DNA of 64,000 nucleotides from Longimicrobiales bacterium (GTDB lineage Bacteria > Gemmatimonadota > Gemmatimonadetes > Longimicrobiales > Gaopeijiaceae): positions 736,001 through 800,000 of the forward strand of contig OZ242008.1 in NCBI GenBank assembly GCA_965204735.1, in the 5' to 3' direction. Shown here one piece after another: positions 7,244 through 32,524 of this stretch. A program made the position numbers and the translations under genes. Within the stretch, counting starts at the first letter, position 1; the number at the start of each line of letters is the position of its first letter. Under the pieces are notes generated by a model. It was not told the origin of the DNA. It saw only the letters and a program-made list of their open reading frames with translations, and did not search any database.

Positions 7244-7482
7244 CTGGCTCTTCCTGCTTGATTGGAGGTGCCCGGTCCGGCTGCCTTGCCAGTGCTTGAC
7301 ATGCGGGCGCCGCCCGGGCGAAGCTTGCGGAAGCGGCGCATCCTGACTTGGTTGCGGGAGCTGGAGCGGGAGGGCGGCAAGATGGAGAACGTCCGGGCGG
7401 TGCTGCAACCTTCTGTCGGACAACTCGGGCCAGGGAGCATGGAGCGATGAAGGTGGCCGGCCGGCGGAGGCCGTAGAGGCGG

Positions 7483-9063
7483 ATGCGCTACTTCAACACG
7501 TCCGGTCCGGTCGTGGCGGACGACCACTACCACGTCCCGCCCCTCGACCGACTCGACCTTGCCGAGGTCCGGGAGCTGATCGACGACCAGCGGTACTTCG
7601 TGCTTCACGCCCCCCGGCAGACCGGCAAGACGTCGGCCCTGCTGGCGCTCCAGGACCTGCTCAACGCGGAGGGCGGTTGCCGCTGCGTCTACGTCAACGT
7701 CGAAGGCGCCCAGGCGATGCGCGAAGACGTGGAGCGCGCGACTCGGGTCATGCTGGGCCAGATGGCCTTGCGGGCTCGGGACGCGCTTGGCGACGACTTC
7801 TTGTCCGGCGCATGGTCCGGCATCGCCGACGAGTTCCGGGAGGGTGCGCTGGGCGAGGCCCTGTCGCGTTGGGCGGAGGCCGACGAGAGGCCGCTGGTGC
7901 TGCTGATCGACGAGATCGACTCGCTGGTGGGCGACACGCTCCTGTCGGTGCTGCGTCAGCTTCGCGCAGACTATCCCCACCGGCCCGCCAGGTTCCCCCA
8001 GAGCGTGGTCCTGTGCGGTGTCCGGGACGTGCGCGACTACCGCATCTGGTCCAGCTCGGCGAAGACGATGGTCACGGGCGGCAGCGGCTTCAACATCGTG
8101 GCCGAGTCCCTGCGCCTGGCCGACTTCTCCCAGGCCGAGGTGCGCGACCTGCTCGGACAGCACACCGAAGAGACCGGCCAGCCGTTCACCGAAGCCGCGC
8201 TGGACGCGGTCTGGACCCAGACCCAGGGCCAGCCGTGGCTCGTCAACGCCCTGGCCTACGAGACCTGCTTCCGCGGCGACCTGGCCGCCGACCGGTCGCG
8301 ACCCGTGACCGAGGCGGACGTGCTGGATGCCCGCGAGCGGTTGATCCAGCGTCGCGACACCCACCTGGACCAGCTGACCGACAAGCTGCGGGAGGACCGC
8401 GTCCGGCGGGTCGTCGAGCCGCTCCTCGTGGGCGGCGAAGGGTTCGATGCCACGGCCGACGACATCGAGTACGTGCAGGACCTGGGCTTGGTCGCCCGAG
8501 ACGCTCCGCTCCGCTTGGCCAACCCGATCTACGCGGAGGCCGTGCCTCGCCAGCTCACGTGGCCGACCCAGCTCAAGATTCGGGAGGACCCGGCGTGGTA
8601 CGTGGACGCCGACGGCGCGTTGCTGCTGGACAAGCTGCTGGCGCGCTTCCAGGAGTTCTTCCGCGAGAACGCCGAGAGCTGGGTCGAGCGGTTCGACTAC
8701 AAAGAGGCGGGACCGCACCTGCTGCTGCAGGCGTTCTTGCAGCGGGTTGTCAACAGGGGCGGGCGGGTCGAGCGGGAGCACGGGCTGGGCCGAGGGCGCG
8801 CGGACCTGCTGATCCGGTGGCCGGAGGGCGACGAAGCGCGCAGCTACGTGGTCGAGTGCAAGGTTCGCCACGACCGCCGGGGCCTGGAGCGCACCGTGGC
8901 CAAGGGGGTGGAGCAGACGGCGGCCTACATGGACCGCTGCGGGGCCGAAGCGGGGCACCTGGTCGTCTTCGACCGCAGCGACGAGCGCAGCTGGGACGAG
9001 AAGGTCTTCCGCGACGTCCGCACCGCCGAGAGCGGGGCCGAGATCGCCGTGTGGGGGATGTGA
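7483..9063 (+). CDS. AAA ATPase - PD-(D/E)XK nuclease fusion, copy 1 (526 aa)
   Basis: Walker A APRQTGKT, Walker B LLIDEID, GQPWLVN, C-terminal GRADLLI..VVECK. Confidence 0.85.
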   Translation: MRYFNTSGPVVADDHYHVPPLDRLDLAEVRELIDDQRYFVLHAPRQTGKTSALLALQDLLNAEGGCRCVYVNVEGAQAMREDVERATRVMLGQMALRARDALGDDFLSGAWSGIADEFREGALGEALSRWAEADERPLVLLIDEIDSLVGDTLLSVLRQLRADYPHRPARFPQSVVLCGVRDVRDYRIWSSSAKTMVTGGSGFNIVAESLRLADFSQAEVRDLLGQHTEETGQPFTEAALDAVWTQTQGQPWLVNALAYETCFRGDLAADRSRPVTEADVLDARERLIQRRDTHLDQLTDKLREDRVRRVVEPLLVGGEGFDATADDIEYVQDLGLVARDAPLRLANPIYAEAVPRQLTWPTQLKIREDPAWYVDADGALLLDKLLARFQEFFRENAESWVERFDYKEAGPHLLLQAFLQRVVNRGGRVEREHGLGRGRADLLIRWPEGDEARSYVVECKVRHDRRGLERTVAKGVEQTAAYMDRCGAEAGHLVVFDRSDERSWDEKVFRDVRTAESGAEIAVWGM

Positions 9064-10667
9064 TGTCGCCCCCAGACCCGTCGGCGATGCGCCGCTTCAA
9101 CAGATCCGGTCCGGTAGTGGAGGGGCGCCACTACTGCATCGCGCCCCTCGACCGACTCGACCTTGCCGAGGTCCGGGAGCTGATCGACGACCAGCAGTAC
9201 TTCGTGCTTCACGCCCCCCGGCAGACCGGCAAGACGTCGGCCTTGCTGGCGCTCCAGGACCTGCTCAACGCGGAGGGCGGCTGCCGCTGCGTATACGTCA
9301 ACGTCGAAGGCGCCCAGGCGATGCGCGAAGACGTGGAGCGCGCGACTCGGGTCATGCTGGGCCAGATGGCCTTGCGGGCTCGAGACGCGCTTGGCGACGA
9401 CTTCTTGTCCGGCGCATGGTCTGGCATCGCCGACGAGTTCCGCGACGGTGCGCTGGGAGCGGCCCTGACCCTCTGGGCCGAGGCCGACGCAAGGCCGCTG
9501 GTGCTGCTGATCGACGAGATCGACTCGCTGGTGGGCGACACGCTCCTGTCGGTGCTGCGCCAGCTTCGCGCTGGCTACGACATGCGGCCCGTCAGGTTCC
9601 CCCAGAGCGTGATCCTGTGCGGAGTCCGGGACGTGCGCGACTACCGCATCTGGTCCAGCTCGGAGAAGACGATGGTTGCGGGTGGCAGCGCCTTCAACAT
9701 CAAGGCCGAGTCCCTGCGCCTGGGCGACTTCTCCAAGGACGATGTGCACGACCTGCTCGGACAGCACACCGAGGAGACCGGCCAGCTGTTCACCGAAGCC
9801 GCGCTGGACGCGATCTGGACCCAGACCCAGGGCCAGCCGTGGCTGGTCAACGCCTTGGCCTACGAGACGTGCTTTCGCGGCGAGTTGGCCGCCGACCGGT
9901 CGCGACCCGTGACCGAGGCGGACGTGCTGGATGCCCGCGAGCGGTTGATCCAGCGTCGCGACACGCACCTGGACCAGCTGACCGACAAGCTGCGCGAGGA
10001 CCGCGTCCGGCGGGTCGTCGAGCCGCTCCTCGTGGGCGGCGAAGGGTTCGATGCCACGGCCGACGACATCGAGTACGTGCAGGACCTGGGCTTGGTCGCC
10101 CGAGACGCGCCGCTCCGCTTGGCCAACCCGATCTACGCGGAGGTCGTGCCTCGCCAGCTCACGTGGCCGACCCAGCTCAAGATTCGGGAGGACCCGGCGT
10201 GGTACGTGGACGCCGACGGCGCGTTGCTGCTGGACAAGCTGCTGGCGCGCTTCCAGGAGTTCTTCCGCGAGAACGCCGAGAGCTGGGTCGAGCGGTTCGA
10301 CTACAAGGAGGCCGGACCGCACCTGCTGCTGCAGGCGTTCTTGCAGCGGGTCGTCAACAGCGGCGGGCGGGTCGAGCGGGAGCACGGGCTGGGCCGAGGG
10401 CGCGCGGACCTGCTGATCCGGTGGCCGGAGGGCGACGAAGGGCGCAGCTACGTGGTCGAGTGCAAGGTTCGCCACGACCGCCGGGGCCTGGAGCGGACCG
10501 TGGCCGAGGGGGTGGAGCAGACGGCGGCGTACATGGACCGTTGCGGGGCCGAAGCGGGGCACCTGGTCGTCTTCGACCGCAGCGACGAGCGCAGCTGGGA
10601 CGAGAAGGTGTTCCGCGACGTCCGCACCGCCGAGAGCGGGGCCGAGATCGCTGTGTGGGGGATGTGA
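9063..10667 (+). CDS. AAA ATPase - PD-(D/E)XK nuclease fusion, copy 2 (534 aa)
   Basis: TGATG overlap with the copy 1 stop; same motifs. Alternative ATG at 9087. Confidence 0.85.
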   Translation: MSPPDPSAMRRFNRSGPVVEGRHYCIAPLDRLDLAEVRELIDDQQYFVLHAPRQTGKTSALLALQDLLNAEGGCRCVYVNVEGAQAMREDVERATRVMLGQMALRARDALGDDFLSGAWSGIADEFRDGALGAALTLWAEADARPLVLLIDEIDSLVGDTLLSVLRQLRAGYDMRPVRFPQSVILCGVRDVRDYRIWSSSEKTMVAGGSAFNIKAESLRLGDFSKDDVHDLLGQHTEETGQLFTEAALDAIWTQTQGQPWLVNALAYETCFRGELAADRSRPVTEADVLDARERLIQRRDTHLDQLTDKLREDRVRRVVEPLLVGGEGFDATADDIEYVQDLGLVARDAPLRLANPIYAEVVPRQLTWPTQLKIREDPAWYVDADGALLLDKLLARFQEFFRENAESWVERFDYKEAGPHLLLQAFLQRVVNSGGRVEREHGLGRGRADLLIRWPEGDEGRSYVVECKVRHDRRGLERTVAEGVEQTAAYMDRCGAEAGHLVVFDRSDERSWDEKVFRDVRTAESGAEIAVWGM

Positions 10668-12268
10668 TGTCGCCCCCAGGCCCGCCGGCGGTGCGCCGCT
10701 TCAACAGGTCCGGTCCGGTAGTGGAGGGGCGCCACTACTGCATCGCTCCCCTCGACCGACTCGACCTTGCCGAGGTCCGGGAGCTGATCGACGACCAGCA
10801 GTACTTCGTGCTTCACGCCCCCCGGCAGACCGGCAAGACGTCGGCCTTGCTGGCGCTCCAGGACCTGCTCAACGCGGAGGGCGGCTGCCGTTGCGTCTAC
10901 GTCAACGTCGAAGGCGCACAGGCGATGCGCGAAGACGTGGAGCGCGCGACTCGGGTCATACTGAGCCAGATGGCTCGCCAGGCACGGCGAACGGGCGACG
11001 ACTTCCTGACCGGGGCATGGTCTGAGATCGCCGCCGAACACGGCGCTGATGCGCTGGGCGAGGCCCTGTCGCGCTGGGCCGAGGCCGACGAGAGGCCGCT
11101 GGTGCTGCTGATCGACGAGATCGACTCGCTGGTGGGCGACACGCTCCTGTCGGTGCTGCGCCAGCTTCGCGCAGACTATCCCCACCGGCCCGCCAGGTTC
11201 CCCCAGAGCGTGATCCTGTGCGGCGTCCGCGACGTGCGCGACTGTCGCATCTGGTCCAGCTCGGCAAAGACGATGGTCACGGGCGGCAGCGGCTTCAACA
11301 TCGCGGCCGAGTCCCTGCGCTTGGGCGACTTCTCCCGGGACGAGGTGCACGACCTGCTCGGACAGCACACCGAAGAGACCGGCCAGCCGTTCACCGAAGC
11401 CGGGCTGGACACGATCTGGACCCAGACCCAGGGCCAGCCGTGGCTCGTCAACGCCCTGGCCTACGAGACGTGCTTTCGCGGCGAACTAGCGAAGGACCGG
11501 TCCCGCCCAGTGACCGAGGCGGACGTGCTGGACGCCCGCGAGCAGCTGATCCAGCACCGCGACACCCACCTGGACCAGCTGACCGACAAGCTGCGCGAGG
11601 ACCGCGTGTGGCGAGTCGTCGAACCGCTCCTGACCGGCGCCAGCGAGTCCAGCTACACCGCTCGGGACGTGGAGTACGTTCGGGACCTGGGCCTGATCGC
11701 CCACGCCCCCCCGATCCGCATGGCCAACCCCATCTACGCCGAGGTCGTGCCTCGGGAGCTGACTTGGCTGGCCCAGGACGACCTGCCGCACGACCCAGCC
11801 TGGTACGTGGACGCCTCCGGCGCCTTGCGCCTGGGCAAGCTGCTCGAAGCGTTCCAGGAGTTCTACCGCGAGAACTCGGAGCACTGGGTCGAGCGCTACG
11901 GCTTCAAGGAGGCGGGCCCGCAGCTGCTCTTGCAGGCGTTCCTGCAGCGGGTCGTCAACAGCGGCGGACGGATCGAGCGGGAGTACGCGCTGGGCGGTGG
12001 TCGCACCGACCTGCTGATCGTGTGGCCGCAGAGCGGGCGCGCGAGCAAGCATGTGGTCGAATGCAAGGTTCGCCACGAGCGCCGGGGCCGGGAGCGGACC
12101 GTGGCCGAAGGCGTGGAGCAGACGGCGGCCTACATGGACCGTTGCGGGGCCGAGGCCGGGCACCTGGTCGTCTTCGACCGCAGCGACGAGCGCAGCTGGG
12201 ACGAGAAGGTGTTCCGCGACGTCCGCACCGCCGAGAGCGGGGCCGAGATCGCAGTGTGGGGGATGTGA
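10667..12268 (+). CDS. AAA ATPase - PD-(D/E)XK nuclease fusion, copy 3 (533 aa)
   Basis: TGATG overlap; same motifs; nuclease variant GRTDLLI..VVECK. Confidence 0.85.
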   Translation: MSPPGPPAVRRFNRSGPVVEGRHYCIAPLDRLDLAEVRELIDDQQYFVLHAPRQTGKTSALLALQDLLNAEGGCRCVYVNVEGAQAMREDVERATRVILSQMARQARRTGDDFLTGAWSEIAAEHGADALGEALSRWAEADERPLVLLIDEIDSLVGDTLLSVLRQLRADYPHRPARFPQSVILCGVRDVRDCRIWSSSAKTMVTGGSGFNIAAESLRLGDFSRDEVHDLLGQHTEETGQPFTEAGLDTIWTQTQGQPWLVNALAYETCFRGELAKDRSRPVTEADVLDAREQLIQHRDTHLDQLTDKLREDRVWRVVEPLLTGASESSYTARDVEYVRDLGLIAHAPPIRMANPIYAEVVPRELTWLAQDDLPHDPAWYVDASGALRLGKLLEAFQEFYRENSEHWVERYGFKEAGPQLLLQAFLQRVVNSGGRIEREYALGGGRTDLLIVWPQSGRASKHVVECKVRHERRGRERTVAEGVEQTAAYMDRCGAEAGHLVVFDRSDERSWDEKVFRDVRTAESGAEIAVWGM

Positions 12269-13872
12269 TGTCGCCCCCAGGCCCGTCGGCGATGCGCTAC
12301 TTCAACACGTCCGGTCCAGTAGTGGCGGACGACCACTACCATGTCCCGCCCCTCTCTCGGGTCGACTTGGCCGAACTCCGTCTGTTGATCGACCAGAAGC
12401 GCTACTTCGTGCTTCACGCCCCCCGGCAGACCGGCAAGACGTCGGCCCTGCTTGCGCTCCAGGACCTGCTCAACGCGGAAGGCGGCTACCGCTGCGTCTA
12501 CGTCAACGTCGAAGGCGCACAGGCGATGCGCGAAGACGTGGAGCGCGCGACTCGGGTCATACTGGGCCAGCTGGCCTTGCGGGATCGAGACGCGCTTGGC
12601 GACGACTTCTTGTCCGGCGCATGGTCTGGCATCGCCGACGAGTTCCGCGACGGTGCGCTGGGAGCGGCCCTGACCCTCTGGGCCGAGGCCGACGCAAGGC
12701 CGCTGGTGCTGCTGATCGACGAGATCGACTCGCTGGTGGGCGACACGCTCCTGTCGGTGCTGCGCCAGCTTCGCGCCGGCTACGACATGCGGCCCGTCAG
12801 GTTCCCCCAGAGCGTGATCCTGTGCGGAGTCCGGGACGTGCGCGACTACCGCATCTGGTCCAGCTCGGAGAAGACGATGGTCACGGGCGGCAGCGCCTTC
12901 AACATCAAGGCCGAGTCCCTGCGCCTGGGCGACTTCTCCAAGGACGAGGTGCGCGACCTGCTCGGACAGCACACCGAAGAGACCGGCCAGCCGTTCACCG
13001 AAGCCGGGCTGGACGCGATCTGGACCCAGACCCAGGGCCAGCCGTGGCTCGTCAACGCCCTGGCCTACGAGACGTGCTTTCGCGGCGAACTAGCGAAGGA
13101 CCGGTCCCGCCCAGTGACCGAGGCGGACGTGCTGGACGCCCGCGATCAGCTGATCCAGCGCCGCGACACCCACCTGGACCAGCTGACCGACAAGCTGCGC
13201 GAGGACCGCGTGTGGCGAGTCGTCGAACCGCTCCTGACCGGCGCCAGCGAGTCCAGCTACACCGCTCGGGACGTGGAGTACGTTCGGGACCTGGGCCTGA
13301 TCGCCCACGCCCCCCCGATCCGCATGGCCAACCCCATCTACGCCGAGGTCGTGCCTCGGGAGCTGACTTGGCTGGCCCAGGACGACCTTCCCCACGACCC
13401 AGCCTGGTACGTGGACGCCTCCGGCGCCTTGCGCCTGGGCAAGCTGCTCGAAGCGTTCCAGGAGTTCTACCGCGAGAACTCGGAGCACTGGGTCGAGCGC
13501 TACGGCTTCAAGGAGGCGGGCCCGCAGCTGCTCTTGCAGGCGTTCCTGCAGCGGGTCGTCAACAGCGGCGGACGGATCGAGCGGGAGTACGCGCTGGGCG
13601 GTGGTCGCACCGACCTGCTGATCGTGTGGCCGCAGAGCGGGCGCGCGAGCAAGCATGTGGTCGAATGCAAGGTTCGCCACGAGCGCCGGGGCCGGGAGCG
13701 GACCGTGGCCGAAGGCGTGGAGCAGACGGCGGCCTACATGGACCGTTGCGGGGCCGAGGCCGGGCACCTGGTCGTCTTCGACCGCAGCGACGAGCGCAGC
13801 TGGGACGAGAAGGTCTTCCGCGACGCCCGCACAGCCGAGAACGGCGCCGAGATCGCAGTGTGGGGAGCGTGA
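12268..13872 (+). CDS. AAA ATPase - PD-(D/E)XK nuclease fusion, copy 4 (534 aa)
   Basis: TGATG overlap; same motifs; its stop overlaps the GTG of the next gene. Confidence 0.85.
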   Translation: MSPPGPSAMRYFNTSGPVVADDHYHVPPLSRVDLAELRLLIDQKRYFVLHAPRQTGKTSALLALQDLLNAEGGYRCVYVNVEGAQAMREDVERATRVILGQLALRDRDALGDDFLSGAWSGIADEFRDGALGAALTLWAEADARPLVLLIDEIDSLVGDTLLSVLRQLRAGYDMRPVRFPQSVILCGVRDVRDYRIWSSSEKTMVTGGSAFNIKAESLRLGDFSKDEVRDLLGQHTEETGQPFTEAGLDAIWTQTQGQPWLVNALAYETCFRGELAKDRSRPVTEADVLDARDQLIQRRDTHLDQLTDKLREDRVWRVVEPLLTGASESSYTARDVEYVRDLGLIAHAPPIRMANPIYAEVVPRELTWLAQDDLPHDPAWYVDASGALRLGKLLEAFQEFYRENSEHWVERYGFKEAGPQLLLQAFLQRVVNSGGRIEREYALGGGRTDLLIVWPQSGRASKHVVECKVRHERRGRERTVAEGVEQTAAYMDRCGAEAGHLVVFDRSDERSWDEKVFRDARTAENGAEIAVWGA

Positions 13873-16800
13873 CGGACGTCCCCCGCCCCGGAATGCTGGC
13901 CACCGTCCGCAACCGGCGCGGCGTGGTGGCGGCGGTGGAACCCCACGACGGCGAGCGCGGGCGGGTCCACCTGGTCCACTTGGAGTACGCGGACCATCAG
14001 TCGCCCCGAGAGGAGCGCCTTCTGTGGGAGATCGAAGGCAGGCCGTCTCTCCTGGAGCCCAACGCCCTGCCCAATCCGGCCCGTTCGCCCATGGCCGCGC
14101 CCGACTTCGACGCCATGCTTCGGGCGGCTCGGTGGACGGCCCTCTCGCCCTACCTCGACCCGTCCGGCGACGGCCGCCCGGCCCAGGAGCCCCTGGCCAG
14201 CCCCTTCCACGGCGGCGTCCGCATCGAGAACTACCAGCTGGTTCCTCTCTTGAAGGCGTTGCGCATGCCCCGGGTCAACCTGCTCATCGCCGACGACGTG
14301 GGGCTGGGCAAGACCGTGGAAGCCGGGTTGGTCCTGTCCGAGCTGCTGCTGCGCCGCCGCATCCGCCGGGTGCTGGTGCTGACGCCCGCGTCGCTCCGCC
14401 GTCAGTGGAGCGAGGAGATGCAGGAGAAGTTTTCGTTGCCCTTCGAGATCGTGGACCGGCTGAGCACGGAGAAGCTGCGCCGCCGCCAAGGCATGGACGC
14501 CAACCCCTGGCGCTCCTTCAGCCGCGTCGTGGCGTCGTACCACTACCTGCGCCAGCCGGACGTGCTGGAGCACTTCCGGGCGGCCTGCGACCACCAGACT
14601 CGCGAAGGCTCTCCACACCTGCCATGGGACCTGCTGATCGTCGACGAGTGCCACAACCTTATGCCGTCCCCGTTCGGCGAAGACAGCGAGCTGTGCAAGA
14701 TGCTGCGCTTTGTGGCCCCGCGCTTCGAGCACCGGCTCTTCCTGTCGGCCACGCCCCACAACGGCCACACCCGCTCGTTCACCGGGCTGCTGGAGATGCT
14801 GGACCCGGTCCGCTTCTCGCGCACCGGCGAGATGACGCCCGCCATGCGCGGACGCATCGACGACGTGGTGATTCGCCGGCTCAAGCGCGACATCAACGCG
14901 ACCGCGACCGGCGAGGGGACCGGCCCCCGCTTCTGCACCCGGTGCCCGCCCAAGGCCCTGACGCTCGCCTTCAGCCCGCACGAGACCCGCCTTTCTGCCG
15001 CCTTCGACGCCTTTCGCAGCGCCATCCGGGAGCAAGTCGCGGAAGGAGGCAAGCGCCGTCGCCGCGCCGGTGCGTTCGCGGTCGAGATCTTCGGCAAGCG
15101 GCTGCTCTCCTGCCCGACCGCCTTCGCCGAGTCGTGGAGCCGCGCCAAGCAGGGGTTCGAGGACCCGCAGGCCGCCGGCGACCGACAGCTTGCGACGGCG
15201 GAACGCTCGCTGCGCCAAGACACGGGCGACGATCGCGAGGCCCAGCAGCGCCAGGCCACGGCGTCGACGGTCGTAGGGGCGTGGCTGAAGAACTTCGCGG
15301 GCGACTTGACGGCCGAGGTCCATGGGATTGAAGACGCTCTTGCCCGGCTGGAGTTCGACTTGGACGCCGGCGCTGCGCCCGTCGTGTCCCAAACGCCCAT
15401 TGCCGACGCCCGCTTCGACCGGCTCTTGAAGCTCGTCGAGGGCCGTCTGCGCGGCGAGGGCCGGTTCCGCGGTGGCGAGCGGCTGGTCGTCTTCACGGAG
15501 TACAAGACGACCCTGGATTATGTGGCCCGCCGCCTGCGGGAGCGCTACGGAGACGAACGTATCCTGACCCTGTTCGGCGCGGGCGGCCCCGGCGGGATGG
15601 ACGAGTCGGGACGCGAGCACGTCAAGGCGGCGTTCAACGACCGCGTGTCCCCCGTGCGCATCCTCGTGGCCACCGACGCCGCGTCGGAGGGGCTCAACCT
15701 GCACCGCACGGCCCGCTACCTGCTCCACTGGGACTGTCCCTGGAACCCGTCTCGGCTGGAGCAGCGGAACGGCCGCCTGGACCGCTACGGCCAAGCCCGC
15801 GACGTGACCGTCCACCACTTCGTGAGCGACACGGACCCGGACTTGCGCTTTCTGGACCACGTGGTTCGCAAGGCCGACGACATCCGGGAGGACCTGGGGT
15901 CGGTCAACGAGGTCTTCGACCGTGCCGTTCACCGCCGCTTGGTTCGGGGCGAGGACGCCGCCGCCGTGCAGGCCGGGCTGGACTTGGAAGTGGAGGCGGC
16001 GCGAGGCCGTGCCAGCCTTGGCGGCGACGGAGCCGCCGACCGGACGTCCAACGGGACATCCGATGGGACATCAAACGGCGAAAATCGGGACATTTCGCTG
16101 GACATTTTAGCCGCCGAAATCGATTTCGACCCCGAAGCGGTCCGGGACACGCTGGAGGCGGCGATGGCTGACACCGCCGGGCGACCGCAGCTCGAGCCCG
16201 CCGCGCGCGCCCACGACACGGGGAGCAGCAGCAACGGCCGCGACGGCCTTCATCGCCTTGTGAACCCCGGCTTGCCCGGCTGGAGCCAAGTCGTGGACGA
16301 GTCCGTCCGCCGCCCCGGACTCGGCGGGGCGCAGGGACCGGTTCCCGCACTGGCTTTCAGTCCAAAGCCGTTCATCAAGAAGCGGGGCGACTTGAGCGTC
16401 TTTCGGCCGCGCAAGGATGCGTTGTTCGTCCACTTGGCCCACCCGATCATGCGTCATGCCTTGGGCGTGCTGGCGAAGCGGCGATACCCGGGCGCCGGGA
16501 GCGAGGCGTCGCGCTGGACCGCGCGTTACGGCGGCGTGCCGGAAGGAGCCGAGGCGGCGGTTCTGCTCAGCGTGGAGGAGATCGGCGTGAACAAGCTGCG
16601 GGAGACGTTCCACCGCTGGGTGCGGACGGTCGTGTTCCCGATGCGCGACGGCGAACTTGGATCGCCCCTTCCCCACGCGCCCGCCCGGTCGCTCCTGGGC
16701 GCAAGCGAGTGCGAGGACGCGGCTCGCCGGGAACAGGCCGCCGAGATCCTGGAAGCCGCCGCGCCGGCGCTCAAGCAGTGGATGCGCGATCACAGGCGCG

Positions 16801-24264: not shown

Positions 24265-24383
24265 GCCTCGCCCGAACCGTCGACCTCAGATCACGGCCGC
24301 CTCTGACAGTCTCGTCTTGGTTGTCGGTACAGTCTCGCTTGGTTGTCGCTCAATACCAGGATCCCCTGTCGCGACGGCTTGAC

Positions 24384-24614
24384 CTATTCGCCGCGCTGCT
24401 CAAAGACCTGCCGTCCTAGCCCCGAGTGGCGGATTATCGCACCCAGGGTTCCTTGGGCGACTTGGCGGTGGTTAGGGACTACGACCGTGGTTGTTCCCTC
24501 GCCGGCCTGCCGTTGCATAACGATGTGGCTGCCACGCCGCCGGGCCTCCAGGAAGCCGTGACGTTCAAGAATTCGGCAGACCTCGCGTGCAGAAAATACC
24601 CCCAGCCTACCCAA
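24384..24614 (-). CDS. hicA: HicA family toxin
   Basis: SAREVCRILERHGF..RRGSHIVM..VVPNH..GTLGAIIRHSGL; TTG start overlapping the hicB stop. Confidence 0.9.
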   Translation of the reverse strand: MGRLGVFSAREVCRILERHGFLEARRRGSHIVMQRQAGEGTTTVVVPNHRQVAQGTLGAIIRHSGLGRQVFEQRGE

Positions 24615-24828
24615 CGGCGACTTCGACGTCGGTAACGTAGAACTCCGGTCGAACCCTTGCCATCTTCTCGGCGGGCGACGCGCATTCGATGAACAGCTCG
24701 ACGGCTTCCTTGAGATTGTCTCGAGCTTCTTGAATGGTGTGTCCTTGCGTAACCACGTCGAAGTGTGGACAGGTCGCGACGTACAGGTCGCCCTCGCGTT
24801 CGATGATTGCGGTCAGCGTTCTCGTCAC
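24607..24828 (-). CDS. hicB: Short HicB family antitoxin (73 aa)
   Basis: AIIEREGDLYVATCP..TQGHTIQEARDNLKEAVELF; AGGAGG RBS before GTG at 24828. Confidence 0.9.
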   Translation of the reverse strand: MTRTLTAIIEREGDLYVATCPHFDVVTQGHTIQEARDNLKEAVELFIECASPAEKMARVRPEFYVTDVEVAVG

Positions 24829-25105
24829 CTGCGTCCTCCTTGGTATCCGATTGTCCGGGGGCTTGCACGCTCGTAGTAACGTACCGTAGCTCCCAGTGGC
24901 TCCAAAGTCAAGTCCGTCTGCTCCAGTCGCGGCCAGAGAAGGCAGCGGTTCAAGGCGGACGATGACCAAGCTACCCCGTTGTCACGGCCTCCTCGCCGAC
25001 CGCCAGCGCTGTTTGACGGGAGCGCATGAGAGGGCGCCTAGCGCGCCGGGTCTGGTGGTCCGCATTTCCGACTCGACCTTCTCCCCGCGCTTGGTCAATT
25101 CTCAC

Positions 25106-25474
25106 TCAGAGTTCCTCGGGCACCTCTTCCAGCCATGACATGACTCGGTCGAGTTCCTCTCGGCTGTGCTCCAGGAAGCTTCCTTCCTTGCTCTCCTCGC
25201 TCAACGTGCGGCTGACGTAGTACCCGACGCTGCCATCCTCTTCGGTGCCGATCTCGACCCTGCCGTACCCGCTGCGCCAGATGATGCAGATCTCCCACGC
25301 CTCGTCGGCGTAGACTTCATCAGGCCGCTTCCATTTGTCGCGCCATCCCAGCAACGTTGCGATTCGGCCCCTGTTGACCTCGATCTGAGGCATGGCCCCT
25401 CCCTTGACCCGGGCTGCCCTCAAGGTGTCGGCGTCGATCGCGTCCAGGATCCGTTCCCCGTCCAGCTCTTCCAC
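25106..25474 (-). CDS. Hypothetical acidic protein (122 aa)
   Basis: Natural-looking composition; AGGAG about 10 nt before the GTG; no family recognised. Confidence 0.5.
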   Translation of the reverse strand: MEELDGERILDAIDADTLRAARVKGGAMPQIEVNRGRIATLLGWRDKWKRPDEVYADEAWEICIIWRSGYGRVEIGTEEDGSVGYYVSRTLSEESKEGSFLEHSREELDRVMSWLEEVPEEL

Positions 25475-25625
25475 CTACTACATGCTCCTGTTCTCCGGGT
25501 GTCTGAACTGAAGTCCGTGTCCCGCTGAAAGCAATATGCCCGCCGGAACCTTGGCCGTCAACTGCCTGGCTCATCGCGCTCCGCGCGTGCGACTCGCCCT
25601 CGGACAGCCCGATCCCGCCAGCCCC

Positions 25626-25762
25626 GCCCTGCGGAGCGGCATCCCCGAGTCCAATCGGCGCATCCTTGCAGGGGCCGGGACCCTCCTGGAGCGCGTGCCG
25701 CGGCTCGACGCCTCCCCGACACGACTGGGCTTGGCGGGAACTCGCCCGTACCTGGACCGGCT
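25626..25762 (+). pseudogene. Degenerate copy of the 3' part of the AlbA-TPR gene (matches 24010-24152)
   Basis: GCCCTGCGGAGCGGCATCCCCGAGTCCAA..ACCCTCCTGGAGCGCGTG..CTGGGCTTGGCGGGAACTCGCCCG is present at both sites, with a frameshifting deletion in this copy. Confidence 0.8.
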
Positions 25763-25885
25763 TCCGGAGGAGCTCCCGCCGCTGCCAGGGGTCGCGGTCG
25801 GAAGAAGTCGACACGCCGGAGGATGTTGCCTGTCGGTGAGCAATCTGGGGGCCGACGCGCTCGGGCGTGAGCTTGCGCAGCAACC

Positions 25886-25915
25886 TTGACAAGCGTCGCA
25901 TTGATGTGTTACGAT
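25886..25915 (+). promoter_or_regulatory. Sigma70-type promoter upstream of the Panacea and helicase genes
   Basis: TTGACA (25886-25891), 18 nt spacer, extended -10 TGnTACGAT (25907-25915). Confidence 0.65.
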
Positions 25916-25986
25916 CAAATAGTGAGTGGTGACCAAGTTCGTTGGATGCCCGGACCGCCCATTTCCCCGGCAAGAGGAGGCCGCAG

Positions 25987-26499
25987 ATGGGCTACACCGC
26001 GAAAGCAGTCGCGAATCACTTCCTGGACTTCGGACGAACCCGCACGAAAGAGATATCGCCGCTGATGATTCAGAAGCTCGTGTACATCTCTCACGGCTGG
26101 CATCTCGCGCTCAGCGGAGGGAAGCCATTGGTCTCGGACGAATACGTCGAGGCATGGGAGTACGGCCCGGTCTTCCCGTCCGTTTACCACGAGTTCAAGC
26201 ACTACGGCGCGTCGCCCATACTCGACTACGCGACCGACTTCGAGCTCGTGGGAACCGACTTCAAGCTGGTTACGCCTCGTGTCGAGACGGACGACGTCAA
26301 TGCGGTCGCGCTCCTTGGACGAGTGTGGAAGGTCTACGGCGACTTCAGCGGTCTGCAACTGTCCGGCATGGCCCACGCGCCGGGCACGCCGTGGGACATC
26401 GTGTGGAACAAGAACAGGGGCATGAGAAACGTGCACATTCCCAACGAGCTGATTGGCAAGTACTACCTGCGAATCATGGAGAGCCGAAATGGCAATTGA
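25987..26499 (+). CDS. Panacea (DUF4065 / SocA-like) antitoxin-domain protein
   Basis: AKAVANHFL..ISPLMIQKLVYISHGW..EAWEYGPVFPSVY..LSGMAH..TPW; GAGGAGG RBS. Confidence 0.9.
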   Translation: MGYTAKAVANHFLDFGRTRTKEISPLMIQKLVYISHGWHLALSGGKPLVSDEYVEAWEYGPVFPSVYHEFKHYGASPILDYATDFELVGTDFKLVTPRVETDDVNAVALLGRVWKVYGDFSGLQLSGMAHAPGTPWDIVWNKNRGMRNVHIPNELIGKYYLRIMESRNGN

Positions 26500-26557
26500 C
26501 TCCGACGAGAAGAACCTGCCTATCCTTGACGTTGATTGACAAGATCAGCCTCCGAAG

Positions 26558-29500
26558 ATGGCCCTGAACCCCGTCGCCTACACCGAGAAGGTCGTCGGCA
26601 GCTTCTTGCGGTACCAGCTCACGGCCTATCCGTTCATGGACGAGGGGCTTCGCGGCCAGATGCGCGACCTCCTCTCTCTGGACGAGACCCGGCAGTCGCC
26701 CCTGCTGAAGGGACCTTACGTCAGCCTGTCCCGCCCGTTCAGGCAGGGCGCGGCGGTGAAGGACTTGGTGGCCGACGGGCTGTTGCACCCGCATCTCCGC
26801 GAACGCATTCCCGAGGCGATCACTCACCTGTACAGCCACCAGGAAAAGGCGGTTCGGGCCGTCGCCGAGGGACGGACCACACTGGTGTCCACAGGCACCG
26901 GCTCGGGCAAGACCGAGTGCTTTCTCTACCCCATCGTCAGCAAGTGCCTGGCGTTGCGGGACGAGGACGCGCCGCCGGGCGTCAGCGCCGTGATCGTCTA
27001 CCCCATGAACGCGCTCGCCGAGGACCAGCTGCTGCGGCTCCGGGACCTGCTGGCCGGGACCGGTGTTTCGTTCGGCATCTACGTCGGCAAGACGCCGGAA
27101 GGGGAGTCGGGAGTGACGGGCCTCCGCTTGCCCGCCGGTTCGTCCCGGGCTGACTACCGGGCGAGGTTGGAGCAGGCGCGAAAAGACGGTCAGGGAGAAG
27201 CCGTCTACCCCGCTGAGGAAGTGTGCTCGCGCGAAGCGATGCGGACGCCGGGCCGCCAGCCGCGCATCCTGCTCACCAACGTGAAGCAGCTGGAGCTCCT
27301 GCTGACCCGCCGCCGCGACATCGAACTTTTCGCCGGCGCGCGCCTGGACTACTTGGTGTTCGACGAGGCCCACACCTTCGCGGGCGTCATGGGGGCCGAA
27401 TCCGCCTGCCTGCTCCGCCGCCTTCGCGCCTTCTGCGACGCGGGGCCGGAGCGCACGACGTGCATCGCCACTTCCGCCACCATCGTGGACCGGGAGGACC
27501 CGGAAGCGGCGCGCAACTTCGCCGCCCGGTTCTTCGGCGTCGCGCCGGGGGACGTGGCAACCGTCGGCGAGGACTACGAGGCCGAGGTCTGGGCCAACCG
27601 GCGGTTCCTGCCGCCCACGCCCCAGGACGACGACGCAGGCATCCTCAACGAGTGCGTGCGCGCAGTCGAAGACGAAGACTCGGCAGGAGGCAGGGTTCGC
27701 GCGGCCTACCGGTCCCTGTCGGGCCGAACGCTTCCGGGCGCGGATGACGACGGCGATGGCAACGGCAACAGCAGCGGCTGGCGGGAGGCGCTGCACGCGG
27801 CCCTGTCGCACAACGAAGTCGTCTACGCGCTGAACGAGGAGCTTGTCGAGCCCCGTGCCCTGGAGGCGTTGCCCGCCGCCCTGGAGCAACGGATCGGACG
27901 GCCCGTGTCCCAAGCCGAGATCCTGTCCTGGCTCACGCTGGGGGCGGCGGCACGCCTGCAAGGGCGCCCATTGCTTCGCCCCGTCGTGCATGCGTTCGTG
28001 CGCGGCGTCGGCGGCGCGGTCGCGTCGTTCCCCGACGGAGCCTCCGGTCCCAGGCTCTGGCTGGCCGCCGAAGACGAAGCCGCCAGCAACGGACCCGACG
28101 GCGCCCGCGCCCGCTTCCCCGTGACCACCTGCACCACGTGCGGACAGCACTACTTCGTCGCGTTCCTGAAGGACTTCACGTTCACGGGAACCAAGCCGGG
28201 CGGGGGCAACGCGAGCCCCAGCGGTCCCTGGTGGGAGCGACTGGACCAGAAGGCGGGCGGAAAGCGAGTCCTGGTCACCGACCGGCTCATCGGCGCCGAC
28301 GAAACAGACGACGACGCGCCGCCCCACAAGCGCACGGCGTCCCTGGCCTTCTGCCGCCGCTGCGGCGCGGCTCACGCAAGCGCGCAGTCGAGCTGCTCGG
28401 CCTGCGGTCGCCCGGGACCGCTCTTGGAGCTGCGGGCGGTCCGGCAGAAGCAGGACAACCCGGGCCTCCTCACGAGCTGCCTGTCGTGCGGCTCGGTGGG
28501 TCGCCGTCCCAGCGGCGGCCGATACCGGGAACCGGCCCGCGAGGTGCGCGCCGTCAACGTTGCCGACGTGCATGTCCTTTCGCAGGACATGGTGCAGCAC
28601 GCCGAGCGGCGGCGCCTTCTCGTCTTCTGCGACAACCGGCAGGACGCCGCGTTCCAGGCCGGCTGGATGAAGGACCACGCCCGCCGCTTCCGCCTGCGCG
28701 CACTGATGAGCCAAGCGCTGGAGGCCGACACGACGTCCGTCGGCGACTTGACGGCCTGCCTGGACGACCGACTGGACGAGGACGAAGCCCTCTCTCGGGC
28801 GCTGATCCCCGAAGTCTGGCAGGCCGCGCCGAGCGACGGCGCCGGAGTCCGTCACAGGCAGGAGCGCCGGAAGTACCTGCGCATTCAAGTGCTGCGCGAG
28901 GTGGCCCTTTCCCCGCGCCAAGCATACGGCCTGGAGCCGTGGGGCCGGATGAAGGTGGAGTACGACGGCCTGAGTTCGACGGACCCGTGGATTCGCCGCC
29001 ACGCCCACCAGCTGGGCATCCCGCCCGACAAGATGCGCGAAGGCGTCGCCAGCGTCCTGGACTATCTGCGCCGCAAGCGCGCGCTCTTCGACCCCGTGCA
29101 CGAGGTCTTCACCAAGCATTGGATGGACGGCGATCGGGAAGTTCAGCAGGGCTACCTTCCCGGCTTCCTCAAGCCCAACGCCACGAAGCTGCGCCGAGAG
29201 CCGACGGAGAAGCCCGCGCAAGTCACCCAGTGGCTGAGCACCGGCGGCGGCGACACCACCATGCGCCAGGTCGCCAGGAAGTGGGGCGTGGCGGGCGACG
29301 CGGTCGAGGCGTTTCTGGAGGGCCTGTTCGAGTACGTGGTCGAGGCGGGGCTGCTTGTCCGGGTCGTCCTCAAGGGGTCCAAGAAGAGACCGTTGCCGGG
29401 TGTAAGCGGGGTGTTTCAGGTGGCCGCCGACAAGCTGCTGCTGAAGCCGAACAGGGGCGTGTGGCGTTGCAGGAAGTGCAGGCGCAAGGCAACCCGCGAC

Positions 29501-32500
29501 GTGCCCCACGGCTTGTGCCCGGCCTGGCGGTGCGACGGCCCGCTGGAGTGGATCAAGGAGGACCCCGACGACTACAACTTGCGGCTGCTGGACGGCGACT
29601 ACTCGATGCTTCGCTCCGAGGAGCACACCGCCATGGTGCCGCCCGACGAGCGCGACCGGCTGGAGAACCGATTCAAGGGCGAGTCCGATGCCGTGAACTG
29701 CCTCGTGTGCACGCCGACGCTGGAGCTCGGGATCGACATCGGTCGGCTGGACTCGGTGCTCATGCGCAACGTGCCGCCCCTGCCCGCCAACTACTGGCAA
29801 CGCGCCGGACGGGCGGGACGGCGTCACCGCATGGCCGTGAACGTGACCTACTGCCGGCCCGTCTCCCACGATCGGGCCTACTTCGCCGACCCGCCGAAGC
29901 TGCTCGGCGGCAAGATCGACCCGCCGGCGTTCAACCTTCGCAACGAGGTGATGGTCGCCAAGCACGTTCACGCCGTCGCGATCGGCGCCCTGTACCGGTA
30001 CAGCCAGGACCCGGAACGACCCGAGGCCGAGCGAAACCGCATTCGCAACGTGCTGAACTCGGCCCTGCCCCGGCGAGTGGCGCCCTACCTGTTCGCCGAC
30101 GGAGAGGTGCGGGATGCGTCCTTCGACTTCGACCCTCTGCGGCACTTGGTGGAGGACCTTTCGGACAGCTTGGCGCACGACCCGAAGCGCGTGTTCCGTC
30201 AGGGCTGGCCCGAGGCGGACGCGGCCGTCGTCGCCGACGCGGCGCTGCAAGGCCACGTGCAGCGATTCGCCGACGAGCTCGAAGAGGTCGTGGCGCGCCT
30301 GCGGCACCGGTTGAAGTGGGCGATGAGGCAGATCGGGCGCTTGAACCGCGAGCAGGAGCGGAAGGGAAGCTTGGAGCCGCCCGAGGAGGCGCTGCGCCGA
30401 CGTTGCGACCGGCTGGTCAAGCAGCTGAAGGGCACATCGCCGAGAAACTGGAGACATGCGGAGGGACACGACGACGCCAACACCTTCGGCGTGCTCGCCG
30501 CGGAGGGATTCCTGCCCGGATACGGCCTGGAGACCGGCGCGGTGACGGGCTGGGCCGAAGTGCCCTTCTGGAAGGCGGGGCCGGCGGAGTTCCGGCTTCC
30601 GCGTCCGCCGGCCACCGCGCTGCGCGAGTACGTGCCCGGCAACCTGATCTACGCCAACGGCCATCGCTTCGCCGCTCGCCGCTTTCACAGGGACGCCAAC
30701 GAGCGCCGGACCGACATGGCGACCTACGCGGTGTCGCGGAAGCGGCGGGCCGTTGCCGAGGTGCACGGCGCCAGCGGCACCGACGGCGACGCAACGCTGC
30801 CCACCATGGCCGTCTGCGACGTCGACCTCGTGCACACGTCCCACATCTCCGACGAAGAGGACCTTCGCTTTCAACTGGGAGTCGCCGTCGCGGGCGTCGA
30901 GCGCGACCAGCACAGCGGCGGAGATGCCTATCGGTGGGGCGCGCAATCGTTGCTGCTTCGCCGGGGCGTGCGGATGCGTCTGGTCAACGTGGGTCCCGCG
31001 ACCTCCATGGACGGCGGGGGCGCGCTCGGCTACCCCGTGTGCTCGGTTTGCGGCCACAGCGTCTCGCCGTTCGCGTCGGACCGCCAGCGGGAGGAGTTCG
31101 ACAAGGGCCACGAGGAGCGGTGCAACCGCAAGCCGGGACTCGTGGGCTTCCATGCGGACGTGATCGCGGACGCCCTTTCCCTGCCGGCGTGCGACGGCCA
31201 GACTACGGCGCACAGCGTCTTGGAGGCCCTGCGCTTCGGCGCTGCCCGCGTGCTCGACATGCACATCGACGACCTGCAGGTCCTGGTCGTCGGCAAGATG
31301 CACGAGGAGGCCGTGGACGCGCTGCTCTGGGACCCGATGCCCGGCGGCTCCGGCCTCTTGGAGCGGATCTGCGACCGCTTTGGAGAAGTGGTCGCGGCGG
31401 CCCGGCGAGTCGTCGGCGAATGCCCCGCCCTGTGCGAATCGGCGTGCACCGACTGCCTCCAGACCTTCCGCAACGCCTACTATCACCGCTTCCTCGACCG
31501 CGGAAACGCAGTCAAGCGCTTCGACAAGTGGGGGAGCAGCCTGGCGTGGGAGCACAAGGTTCCGCCCCGTCAGCCGGACGCGACTCTTCCGCGCAACAGC
31601 GCCGTCCCCGTCAACGCCGCCGAGGCCAAGCTCCGTCGATTGCTGTTGCGGGCCGGCTTCGGGGAAGGCGGGCGCGGCGAGCAGATTCGGCTGGACCGCG
31701 CCCTGGGCACCACGACGCCCGACGTGATCTACCGAGGTCCCGGCCACGACGCCGACGAAGGCGTGTGCATCTACCTGGACGGCCTCAGCCGACACCTCCA
31801 CGGCAACCCCGAGACCGCCGAACGCGACGCGCAGATTCGGAGCTGGTTGCAGAACAAAGGCTACGACGTGGTCGAGGTCGCCGTGCACGACTTGGACGAC
31901 GCGGACGCCATGGCGCGCCACTTCCGCCGCCTGGCCCGCTGCTTGGGCATGGGCGAGAGGGCGAAGAAGCTGGGCACCGACCGGTCATGGTTTCCGGCTC
32001 CCGAGTCCTCCGACGCCGGGGAGCGGCCACGCCTGCGCTTGATCAGGCCCGACCCGGCCCAGCGCTACGTGACGTGCGTGCCCTTCATGCCGTTGAAGGC
32101 TGCGGCCGGGGCCTTCGGCGACCCGCAGACGCTTGCCGAAGACGACGACGAACGGGAGTGGCTGGAGGTGGAAGCGGGACGCGCGCTTCGGCCCGGCATG
32201 TTCGCGGCGCAGGTCGAGGGCCGCTCCATGGAGCCGCGCATCCCCGACGGCTCGTATTGCCTCTTCCGGCCCGACGTGGCCGGCACGCGCCAAGGTCGAG
32301 TGCTCCTCGTGCAGCTCCTGGATCAAGTCGACCCGGAGACGGGCTACCGCTTCACCGTCAAGCGCTACCGCAGCAAGAAGCGCCAGGACGAAGGCGGCTG
32401 GCGTCACGTCAAGGTGACGCTGGAGCCCGACAACCCCGACTTCGCGCCCATCGAGATCGCCACCGACGACGAGGCGACCGTGGACGTCGTGGCCGAGTTC

Positions 32501-32524
32501 GTCGCAGTGCTTGGAGCTGGGTAG
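26558..32524 (+). CDS. YprA/DruE-like DEAH helicase - DUF1998 - Vsr/DUF559-like nuclease - S24 peptidase fusion (1988 aa)
   Basis: [46 protein letters not shown]; several CxxC motifs; [47 protein letters not shown]. Confidence 0.85.

Follow-up and report, generated by a model that had tools for sequence, protein, structure and literature searches.

A predicted ARMADA type I gene set preceded by a likely independent tandem array of ATPase-nuclease genes

ARMADA is defined by an SNF2 gene, a PglX-like methyltransferase and a YprA helicase, and the order SNF2-methyltransferase-YprA is reported for part of its type I (10.1101/2025.09.15.676423, PMC12458937). In the parts of their work available, Bell et al. 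describe DISARM- and Druantia-like resemblances for ARMADA itself, and their Table S2 lists 3r3p for the Vsr domains of ARMADA II and Druantia (10.1101/2025.09.15.676423). The phage experiments on anti-phage activity are reported there for type II, an E. coli system with the order armA-armB-armC, an ArmD protein (RelE-UvrD) and extra EEP/Vsr domains on ArmC (10.1101/2025.09.15.676423, PMC13463889). A further point of reference is DUF1703, which joins PF09820 (AAA-ATPase_like) to PF08011 (PDDEXK_9); it is expanded in the symbiont Cardinium cCpun, where its paralogues recombine and its function is given as unknown (PMC6387759).

We analysed a 64-kb stretch of DNA (the window) from a genome designated G000, in which four genes for ATPase-PD-(D/E)XK proteins are followed by an SNF2 gene, a methyltransferase gene, an AlbA-HATPase-TPR gene, a HicAB pair, a Panacea gene and the gene of a YprA helicase (Table 1). 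The array genes, armA, armB, the AlbA-HATPase-TPR gene and armC are all free of internal stops. Stop and start codons overlap as TGATG three times within the array, as GTGA at 13869 and 17204, and as ATGA at 22294. The original prediction had described a chain of seven genes joined in this manner; its coordinates and overlaps were found as written when the ORFs were re-read, and its domain assignments (ATPase-nuclease, SNF2, methyltransferase, AlbA-HATPase-TPR and helicase-DUF1998) match the Pfam and PADLOC results. Array and core are probably read as one operon.

Table 1. Features of the locus, in window coordinates.
Feature	Coordinates	Strand	Basis or remark
Rpn/YhgA-like gene relic, ~135 nt	7270..7405	+	9 further copies in G000; family name given by eye, not by profile search
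ATPase-nuclease copy 1, 526 aa	7483..9063	+	Pfam AAA_22 E 3e-8, PDDEXK_9 E 0.0017 (below cut-off)
ATPase-nuclease copy 2, 534 aa from overlapping ATG	9063..10667	+	alternative ATG 9087
ATPase-nuclease copy 3, 533 aa	10667..12268	+	alternative GTG 10691
ATPase-nuclease copy 4, 534 aa	12268..13872	+	alternative ATG 12292
armA, DrmD/BrxHII-like SNF2 helicase, 1112 aa	13869..17207	+	NF038317, PADLOC DrmD
armB, PglX/DrmMI-like adenine methyltransferase, 1697 aa	17204..22297	+	PADLOC type IIG MTase 1217 bits, DrmMI E 2e-121
AlbA_2-HATPase_c_4-TPR gene, 656 aa	22294..24264	+	Pfam; cargo in armB-armC interval
HicA toxin	24384-24614	-	PF07927 E 2e-15
HicB-like antitoxin	24607-24828	-	PF21748 E 4e-5
Panacea/SocA antitoxin-like	25942..26499	+	PF13274 E 3e-15
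armC, YprA-family helicase-DUF1998/MZB + Vsr-like + S24, 1988 aa	26558..32524	+	Pfam, PADLOC

ArmA scored 659 bits against the DISARM_DrmD model NF038317 (cut-off 610), was matched in PADLOC by DrmD (E 3e-195) and also by BrxHII, and carries the motifs GLGKT and DECH. ArmB contains DPACGSG at 646 and NPPW at 957. The GC content of armB falls from about 0.70 to 0.47-0.55 after about position 20200, and its product is 91% identical to the homologue in G002 over residues 1-980, as against 42% over residues 983-1672; this low-GC, exchanged 3' part is likely to be the target-recognition region. In ArmC, a single ORF joins DEAD (PF00270), Helicase_C (PF00271), MZB (PF09369) and a C-terminal Peptidase_S24, and the best PADLOC models are DruE. 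A Vsr-like domain was located at about residues 1685-1810. Its model (residues 1665-1815) gave 3r3p as the best structural match (probability 0.97, E 0.076), with Vsr itself (1vsr) at rank 12; 3r3p was also the best sequence-profile match, a weak one (E 0.31), and Pfam returned no Vsr match for armC.

With ARMADA type I, as set out in the available parts of Bell et al., the locus shares a BrxHII/DrmD-like SNF2 protein, a PglX-like methyltransferase with NPPW, a YprA-DUF1998 protein with a C-terminal Vsr-like domain and the lack of ArmD, and its gene order is the reversed one of part of type I. The type was assigned through a labelled relative and not through a YprA tree with type II sequences: JADKBN010000025.1 (L015), which carries the label 'ARMADA Type I helicase' in the table of Bell et al., has the same gene order, and its helicase is 70% identical to ArmC over residues 1-275, the part compared, whereas for the other plasmid helicases, which bear a type I or a Druantia III-B-like label, identity is 27-40%. 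By gene content and order, the core matches ARMADA type I, which bears out the suggestion in the original prediction that the three genes might belong to ARMADA (10.1101/2025.09.15.676423). The order armA-armB-armC is also common to type II, but the ArmD and extra EEP/Vsr domains described for that type were not seen here. No UvrD/ArmD gene follows armC in the window, where an amidohydrolase gene is found instead, and the nearest sizeable downstream ORF tested at eight related loci gave no UvrD match. The locus differs from type I in its ATPase-nucleases ahead of armA (one to four within this clade), in the AlbA-HATPase-TPR, HicAB and Panacea genes that separate armB from armC, and in an extra S24 domain on ArmC, none of which was found in the available parts of the main text or in Table S2 of Bell et al. 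(10.1101/2025.09.15.676423).

DrmD-like and DrmMI-like genes are common to the locus and DISARM class I, and a DruE-like helicase, here beside an SNF2-methyltransferase pair, is common to the locus and Druantia. DISARM class I was rejected: DUF1998 is fused to the helicase, there is no separate DrmB, and no PLD family (DrmC) was found by Pfam among the 17 proteins scanned. Druantia was rejected as well, only the helicase matching Dru models among the six large proteins scanned with PADLOC, with no Dru partner gene. The original prediction had named the absence of DrmB and DrmC and held the core to be neither system, as we also find. It had called for a PADLOC run, which recovered the core members (DrmD, type IIG MTase/DrmMI, DruE) and gave no match for the array gene.

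The AlbA-HATPase-TPR gene was observed at the armB-armC position only in G000, G002 and G252, and had no match in 80 metagenome loci. Ahead of the Panacea gene lies a sigma-70-like site (25886-25915), a consensus match only, with 2 found against 1.4 in shuffles; this predicted site may also serve armC.

The array proteins consist of an AAA+ P-loop ATPase, a winged-helix-like middle and a C-terminal PD-(D/E)XK nuclease domain. Walker A (G48-K49-T50), Walker B (D143-E144) and D441/E458/K460 of copy 1 are conserved in 98-100% of 170 relatives, and the protein is predicted, from this motif and a sub-threshold Pfam match (PF08011, 18.7 bits, cut-off 25.5), to be likely DNA-cutting. PF08011 matched 21 of 30 family members at E up to 0.1, and PF09820 weakly matched six of the 30 (best E 0.016). 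A PDB sequence search with the family profile gave nothing better than E 0.46. In Foldseek, a model of mean pLDDT 70 found the archaeal AAA+/STAND-like ATPases SSO1545 (2fna, E 3e-6) and PAB2304 (2qen, 4e-6) and Cdc6/Orc1 (2qby, 2e-5) as top matches, with low TM-scores (0.23-0.34). All three appear, from the model, to share with the array protein an AAA+ core that has helical and winged-helix domains behind it, and the array protein differs in its additional nuclease domain. We take SSO1545 and PAB2304 to be of the MNS class of STAND NTPases.

The array family resembles DUF1703, as far as the latter is described in the parts of the source available, in its AAA ATPase with C-terminal PD-(D/E)XK, its lineage-specific expansion and its recombining paralogues. 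It differs as a sister family, AAA_22/AAA_35-like, that falls below the curated cut-offs of PF09820 and PF08011, and its copies here are 65-92% identical and in part tandem, whereas Cardinium DUF1703 proteins average 39% (PMC6387759). Avs receptors, in the available definition, comprise an effector, a STAND NTPase and a C-terminal sensor of at least 400 aa, mostly TPR (10.64898/2026.01.04.697583); the array gene was rejected as an Avs receptor, being a 526-aa protein without a sensor domain or a PADLOC match. In the open-access literature we found no paper on a tested function of this family or on an ATPase-nuclease accessory of ARMADA.

The array is a tandem amplification with a period of 1601-1604 nt, so that the four ATPase-nucleases predicted originally are present, but not as four independent genes: pairwise identities are 81.3-91.9% (aa) and 86.9-95.1% (nt). 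None of the four is disrupted, and purifying selection acts on all of them (dN/dS 0.35-0.55). Informative sites among them form 6 runs, where 10,000 permutations gave 58 on average and never fewer than 43; the copies are four different combinations of three two-allele blocks, and blocks are also swapped with solitary copies. This site pattern marks the array as a set of mosaics built by recombination from old alleles. The TGATG starts of copies 2-4 are only candidate starts, because it is the second in-frame ATG/GTG, 24 nt downstream of each, that corresponds by homology to the start codon of copy 1 and to that of the solitary copies. Overlap at the 3' end of the gene is cheap, because the ATGTGA ending of 30 of the 49 full-length family members itself contains an overlapping GTG. 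In arrays elsewhere (G003 and the second array of G002) the junctions are non-overlapping.

Outside ARMADA, the ATPase-nuclease family has at least 8000 homologues, expanded by genus. It was found in 36 of 301 order-level genomes, far above the core (helicase in 11 of 301). G000 holds three more full copies and one fragment outside the array, and the matches in related genomes, which are not copy numbers, were 32 in G002, 12 in G003 and 9 in G001; armB had no match in the last two. Three arrays (L019, L020, L021) occur without ARMADA. In G262, an intact ATPase-nuclease is followed by only 50 codons of armA, with no armB, a remnant that reads as loss of the ARMADA core with the ATPase-nuclease kept. 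Neighbours at 37 other loci were mostly housekeeping genes and were judged to be of defence type at 5 of the 37, in a survey with a simple custom gene caller that left 20 of 66 ORFs without a Pfam match.

A survey of the neighbourhoods of SNF2 homologues, as proposed in the original prediction, revealed no ATPase-nuclease at any of 80 metagenome loci that carry related SNF2 genes, including 41 top-ranked close ones (31 of these with at least 1.7 kb upstream), using a profile that finds 40%-identical cyanobacterial members at E < 1e-120. SNF2-methyltransferase-YprA sets without ATPase-nuclease were present at nine of the 80. Among the 11 helicase genomes, the array stands directly ahead of armA in three: G000 (four copies), G002 (three and a fragment) and G252 (one). 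None was found in the 4.8-15.7 kb upstream covered in G251, G083, G109, G256, G068 and G259, which are all six informative family-level loci outside the linked clade; G303 is uninformative, with 835 nt to the contig end, and G309 has the helicase without SNF2 within 20 kb. The three linked ArmA proteins form one clade (FastTree support 1.0; in this tree the placement of the frameshifted L033 is unreliable), ArmA is 76% identical between G000 and G252, and the ATPase-nuclease and armA overlap by stop and start in every linked case. To judge from these comparisons, the junction is inherited across two genera (G000, G002, G252, with a relic in G262). It may be general within the linked ArmA clade, because two of 11 further ArmA proteins there (P0123-P0133) perhaps share a contig with two ATPase-nuclease copies each, a hint from equal lengths. 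The ARMADA-linked ATPase-nucleases are not one clade, requiring three changes on a quick tree; with recombination among these genes, no single tree of them can be more than approximate. On this distribution the array does not belong to ARMADA in general. The idea that array and core form a new defence system runs in large part into the refuting conditions that were set with it: the core is the described ARMADA, and the array is absent beside related cores outside one sub-lineage. The proposed link between the two holds in so far as the junction is inherited, but the ATPase-nuclease thrives without the core.

We consider the locus to be best explained, with a probability of about 0.68, as an ARMADA type I gene set in which armA is preceded by a likely independent gene, the ATPase-nuclease, likely raised to four copies through unequal crossing-over. 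The array copies are likely an independent incomer, because the same gene is scattered alone through this and related genomes. The ancestor of one ArmA clade would have acquired a single ATPase-nuclease at the start of armA. With the armA start codon now lying in its 3' end (the last bases of copy 4), the gene would likely have been kept there and likely co-expressed, and no cooperation with ArmABC would be needed. By analogy with ARMADA type II, as far as described by Bell et al., the exchangeable 3' part of ArmB would determine the site at which this enzyme methylates host DNA, and ArmA and ArmC would act directly on incoming phage DNA with no cell killing. Each ATPase-nuclease, judging by its anatomy, may be a self-contained ATP-regulated DNA endonuclease whose binding would be set by a variable helical insert (residues ~81-120) and the winged-helix region; recombination among copies would reshuffle these specificity blocks, giving a repertoire for genetic conflict on its own account. 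Against this explanation stand the persistence of the junction across two genera, with copies amplified there in two genomes, and the possible generality of the link within the linked ArmA clade; four intact copies in four block combinations also fit selection for a repertoire at this place.

It is highly improbable that the core belongs to DISARM class I or Druantia, or that the array is an assembly artefact. The DrmD score and the DruE models would favour the former, but the fused DUF1998 and the missing PLD gene speak against it, both resemblances are described for ARMADA in what is available of Bell et al., and the close relative L015 is labelled type I. Near-identical repeats are prone to mis-assembly, yet an artefact is very unlikely as the source of the array, because the copies differ at 5-13% of bases, contigs of public runs bridge the junctions and G002 repeats the arrangement with three copies. 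The copy 4-SNF2 junction was bridged in four of the four public runs examined, and that between copies 2 and 3 by at least one contig of run X4 among the pieces listed. These readings are already largely refuted. It is conceivable, but unlikely, that the ATPase-nuclease is a selfish mobile gene that drives its own copying into intergenic sites, the nuclease cutting and recombination inserting, with no defence role and with arrays as by-products. Of 25 tested ATPase-nuclease sites in G002 and G003, 5 have flanks that lie next to each other in G000, 17-419 nt apart, which fits single-gene gain or loss, and up to 32 matches occur per genome. Pseudanabaena plasmids share a unit of the gene and a leader of about 170 nt, 75-82% identical in unrelated contexts, with a tyrosine recombinase gene at most 1.5 kb away in three of five, and the Rpn-like nuclease-type family of G000 behaves likewise. 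However, no terminal repeats or target duplications were seen by eye at six filled/empty site pairs, although divergence of the intergenic DNA there precludes a strict test. Identity among dispersed copies is 65-85%, not the near-identity of an active insertion sequence, and 50,697 phage records gave no match.

We are more doubtful still of a lineage-specific accessory role, in which ARMADA I would have recruited the ATPase-nuclease in one clade as an additional sensor or effector, the array offering interchangeable specificities for a methylation-guarded core. The earlier proposal of interchangeable effectors or sensors survives only in this restricted form, as a minor reading for one ArmA clade and not for ARMADA generally. 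Inheritance of the junction within that clade, amplification at the armA site in two genomes, the constant overlap with armA and four distinct block combinations, all with apparently intact catalytic motifs, are consistent with it. Against it, ArmC already has its own Vsr-like domain, no ATPase-nuclease was found at the 80 metagenome or six informative sister loci, and the linked copies are no dedicated subfamily but exchange blocks with solitary ones. Moreover, arrays arise without ARMADA, the ATPase-nuclease outlives the core in G262, and neither 'ATPase' nor 'AAA' occurs in the main text of the ARMADA paper (10.1101/2025.09.15.676423). We give equally little credence to a bolder version, in which a self-dispersing ATPase-nuclease with recombining specificity blocks would have become, in a single lineage of sponge-associated bacteria, a domesticated and variable sensor or effector module of ARMADA I; its array of one to four copies would grow, shrink and reshuffle blocks, widening the range of phage or plasmid DNA open to attack by the methylation-guarded core. 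If the array were a working part of ARMADA, a diversifying gene family would here have been taken up by a defence system to serve as plug-in effectors.

As a further member of ARMADA type I, the locus shows a hotspot for cargo in the armB-armC interval and a methyltransferase whose 3' part has been exchanged. For a very large family without known function, it also provides a natural series of 0, 1, 3 and 4 copies together with an ATPase kept after core loss, and the four near-isogenic, block-shuffled variants form a convenient set to ask what the family recognises or cuts.

No tRNA was found in the 64-kb window, and promoter and terminator counts were no higher than in shuffled sequence. The two flanks of the island map to separate places in the relatives searched, with no empty site definable for the whole island. 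Just upstream of the array lies the Rpn/YhgA-like relic, whose further copies in G000 measure 101-137 nt, are 87-89% identical and lie inside longer ORFs; Rpn/YhgA-like genes are another multi-copy family of this genome.

We place the locus, at a probability of about 0.68, as a new ARMADA type I member preceded by a widespread ATPase-nuclease gene, present in amplified, recombining copies, that most likely acts alone. The original prediction had seen the coupled array and DISARM-related core as a candidate undescribed defence system. The eight large ORFs and the six stop/start overlaps that it listed were all found in place, and a search of the open-access literature found no paper describing an ATPase-nuclease paired with ARMADA. 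Array and core are probably one operon; that they form one machine is putative.

Coordinates of the features discussed (C1, source-genome contig; L handles, loci in related genomes)
Sequence	Position	Feature	Remark
Window	7270-7405	Presumed Rpn/YhgA-like relic	Immediately upstream of copy 1
Window	7483-13872	ATPase-nuclease copies 1-4	
Window	13869-17207	armA (SNF2)	
Window	17204-22297	armB (methyltransferase)	
Window	20200-22297	armB 3' third	GC 0.47-0.55 vs 0.70
Window	22294-26557	armB-armC interval	
Window	25617-25757	AlbA gene 3' (TPR) relic	81-92% identical to 24001-24146; 1.6 kb downstream of gene
Window	26558-32524	armC (YprA helicase)	
C1	near 0.50 Mb	Second YprA-like helicase	Adjoins methyltransferase match
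C1	2087607-2088124	ATPase-nuclease fragment	
C1	2.172, 2.8255-2.8283, 3.164 Mb	Presumed Rpn/YhgA-like family	
C1	near 2.68 and 3.46 Mb	SNF2-methyltransferase pairs	About 38% and 29% identical
L113 (G256)	10236-12401	Decaying ARMADA I	
L115-L116 (G068), L111-L112 (G309)		Decaying ARMADA I	
L120 (G259)	8530-11807	McrBC pair	3' of ARMADA I helicase
L164 (G262)	12758-14511	ATPase-nuclease and truncated armA	

The four leading genes recur every 1601-1604 nt and their proteins are 81.3-91.9% identical. Copies 2-4 carry, 24 nt downstream of the overlapping ATG, an extra in-frame ATG or GTG whose homologue in copy 1 is that gene's start; the overlapping ATG is their putative start. Since family copies commonly end in ATGTGA (30 of 49 full-length copies, drawn from eight genomes), the stop-overlapping GTG comes with the end of the gene. 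Contigs spanned the copy 4-SNF2 junction in all four public runs examined, and one contig spanned the copy 2-copy 3 junction; public run X4, labelled sponge metagenome, contains a close variant of the locus. The family that we take to be Rpn/YhgA-like is multi-copy in the source genome, where some of its members stand in tandem at a period of 930 nt.

The suggestion that the three-gene core might already be known as ARMADA was borne out. Bell et al. (10.1101/2025.09.15.676423) define the system by an SNF2 protein, a methyltransferase and a Druantia-like YprA helicase with a terminal Vsr-type nuclease; ArmD is added in type II, whose architecture and activity PMC13463889 confirms, and the SNF2-methyltransferase pair comes first in part of type I. 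Here, ArmA scores above the NCBIfam DrmD cut-off, ArmB matches type IIG/DrmMI models and has an NPPW motif, and the 1988-aa ArmC has DEAD, Helicase_C, MZB (DUF1998) and S24 domains, with DruE models nearest. A model of ArmC residues 1665-1815 best matched 3r3p (probability 0.97, but E 0.076), a structure also given for Vsr domains in Table S2 of Bell et al. No UvrD gene was found downstream of armC, in the window or among ORFs downstream in related loci. The related locus L015 has the same gene order and a helicase 70% identical to ArmC over 275 available residues, and its contig is entered as ARMADA Type I by Bell et al. On likeness to this labelled relative, we filed the core as a probable ARMADA type I. 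The McrBC pair of G259 is placed as Bell et al. describe for the cassette. The additional pairs and second helicase of the source genome would represent further DISARM/BREX/ARMADA-like islands.

Across 170 sequences of the array gene, conservation of the Walker A and Walker B motifs and of D441-E458-K460 reaches 98-100%; variability is greatest in the helical insert (residues 81-120). SSO1545, PAB2304 and Cdc6/Orc1 were nearest to the structural model (mean pLDDT 70), all at low TM-scores; ATPases of the SSO1545/PAB2304 type are presumably those labelled MNS class (STAND NTPases). No PADLOC model matched. The clusters returned by an Atlas search are ATP-binding proteins without a name, spread over many phyla; AAA_35 marks 22-83% of their members, and some clusters also show PF09820 or PDDEXK_3. 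The gene is similar to the DUF1703 family, for which PMC6387759 reports expansion and recombination in a symbiont, but falls short of its Pfam cut-offs; it is also built differently from Avs receptors (10.64898/2026.01.04.697583).

Informative sites pair copies 1+4 against 2+3 near the N-terminus (12 sites). In the ATPase the pairing is 1+3 against 2+4 (20 sites), and in the C-terminal half it is 1+2 against 3+4 (123 sites); the sites thus form 6 runs, compared with a permutation mean of 58 and minimum of 43 (10,000 permutations). Unequal crossing-over and conversion would have produced this mosaic. Each of the two C-terminal alleles has nearer relatives, among solitary copies or in other genomes, than the other allele, which indicates that they predate the array. 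ARMADA-linked copies were not one clade in a quick tree, and dN/dS among the copies (0.35-0.55) points to purifying selection.

Outside the lineage the gene does not appear to be linked to the core: an ArmA alignment led to 80 metagenome loci (41 close loci included, 31 of those with at least 1.7 kb upstream), and not one had a match to the ATPase-nuclease, using a profile that easily picks up 40%-identical members. Within the order, the helicase occurs in 11 and the ATPase-nuclease in 36 of 301 genomes. The latter stands upstream of armA as four copies in the source genome, as three with a fragment in G002 and as a single copy in G252, and is absent there in G251, G083, G109, G256, G068 and G259, the first, third, fourth and fifth of which carry it elsewhere; G303 ends 835 nt upstream of armA and G309 is without a nearby SNF2 gene. 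In G262 an intact ATPase-nuclease precedes the first 50 codons of armA, with armB and the rest of ARMADA gone. As all linked ArmA proteins fall, with P0123-P0133 (further ArmA proteins), in one clade (support 1.0), the junction appears to have arisen once and been kept across two genera. This inheritance is what remains of the link between array and core in the original prediction, against which stand the metagenome loci and the six unlinked genomes; it is also the main result counting against an independent gene. Recruitment as an ARMADA accessory, which it favours, we still consider improbable. Decay of ARMADA I loci takes three forms: armA broken and armB missing, armC split, or armC left with neither armA nor armB within 20 kb.

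A selfish gene is a slightly stronger candidate than a recruited accessory, but unlikely too, and other explanations have very little weight beside a gene acting alone. The source genome has three further full copies and one fragment, the latter among genes resembling, by eye, a type I-G CRISPR-Cas set; G002, G003 and G001 gave 32, 12 and 9 matches (not copy numbers), and 36 of 40 sampled relatives gave none. ARMADA genes are missing from three arrays in G002 and G003, whose junctions are of another type. Neighbours at 37 other loci are mostly metabolic or housekeeping, with defence-type genes at 5. When 25 sites in G002 and G003 were tested against the source genome, 18 were unmatched and 7 had collinear flanks, which in the source genome close up within 17-419 nt at five and enclose other DNA at two. 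The family was found in 14 plasmid records, mostly cyanobacterial (a lone gene in unrelated contexts in 6 of 6 inspected), and in no phage record. Two Pseudanabaena strains (L165, L167-L170) carry it on four plasmids each; what five compared copies share is the gene and a leader of about 170 nt, and tyrosine recombinases lie close to three of the five.

Within the core, ArmB is 91% identical to that of G002 in its 5' part and 42% in its 3' part. The latter is likely a target-recognition region that has been exchanged, and close relatives would then probably differ in the motifs they methylate. Between armB and armC lies a cargo hotspot, its content differing in every relative (L017, L105, L107, L109, L113, L117, L015), its length varying between less than 0.3 kb and about 17 kb, and its cargo including AlbA-HATPase-TPR, HicAB, Panacea, AAA ATPases and others. 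AlbA-HATPase has 10 distant paralogues in the source genome.
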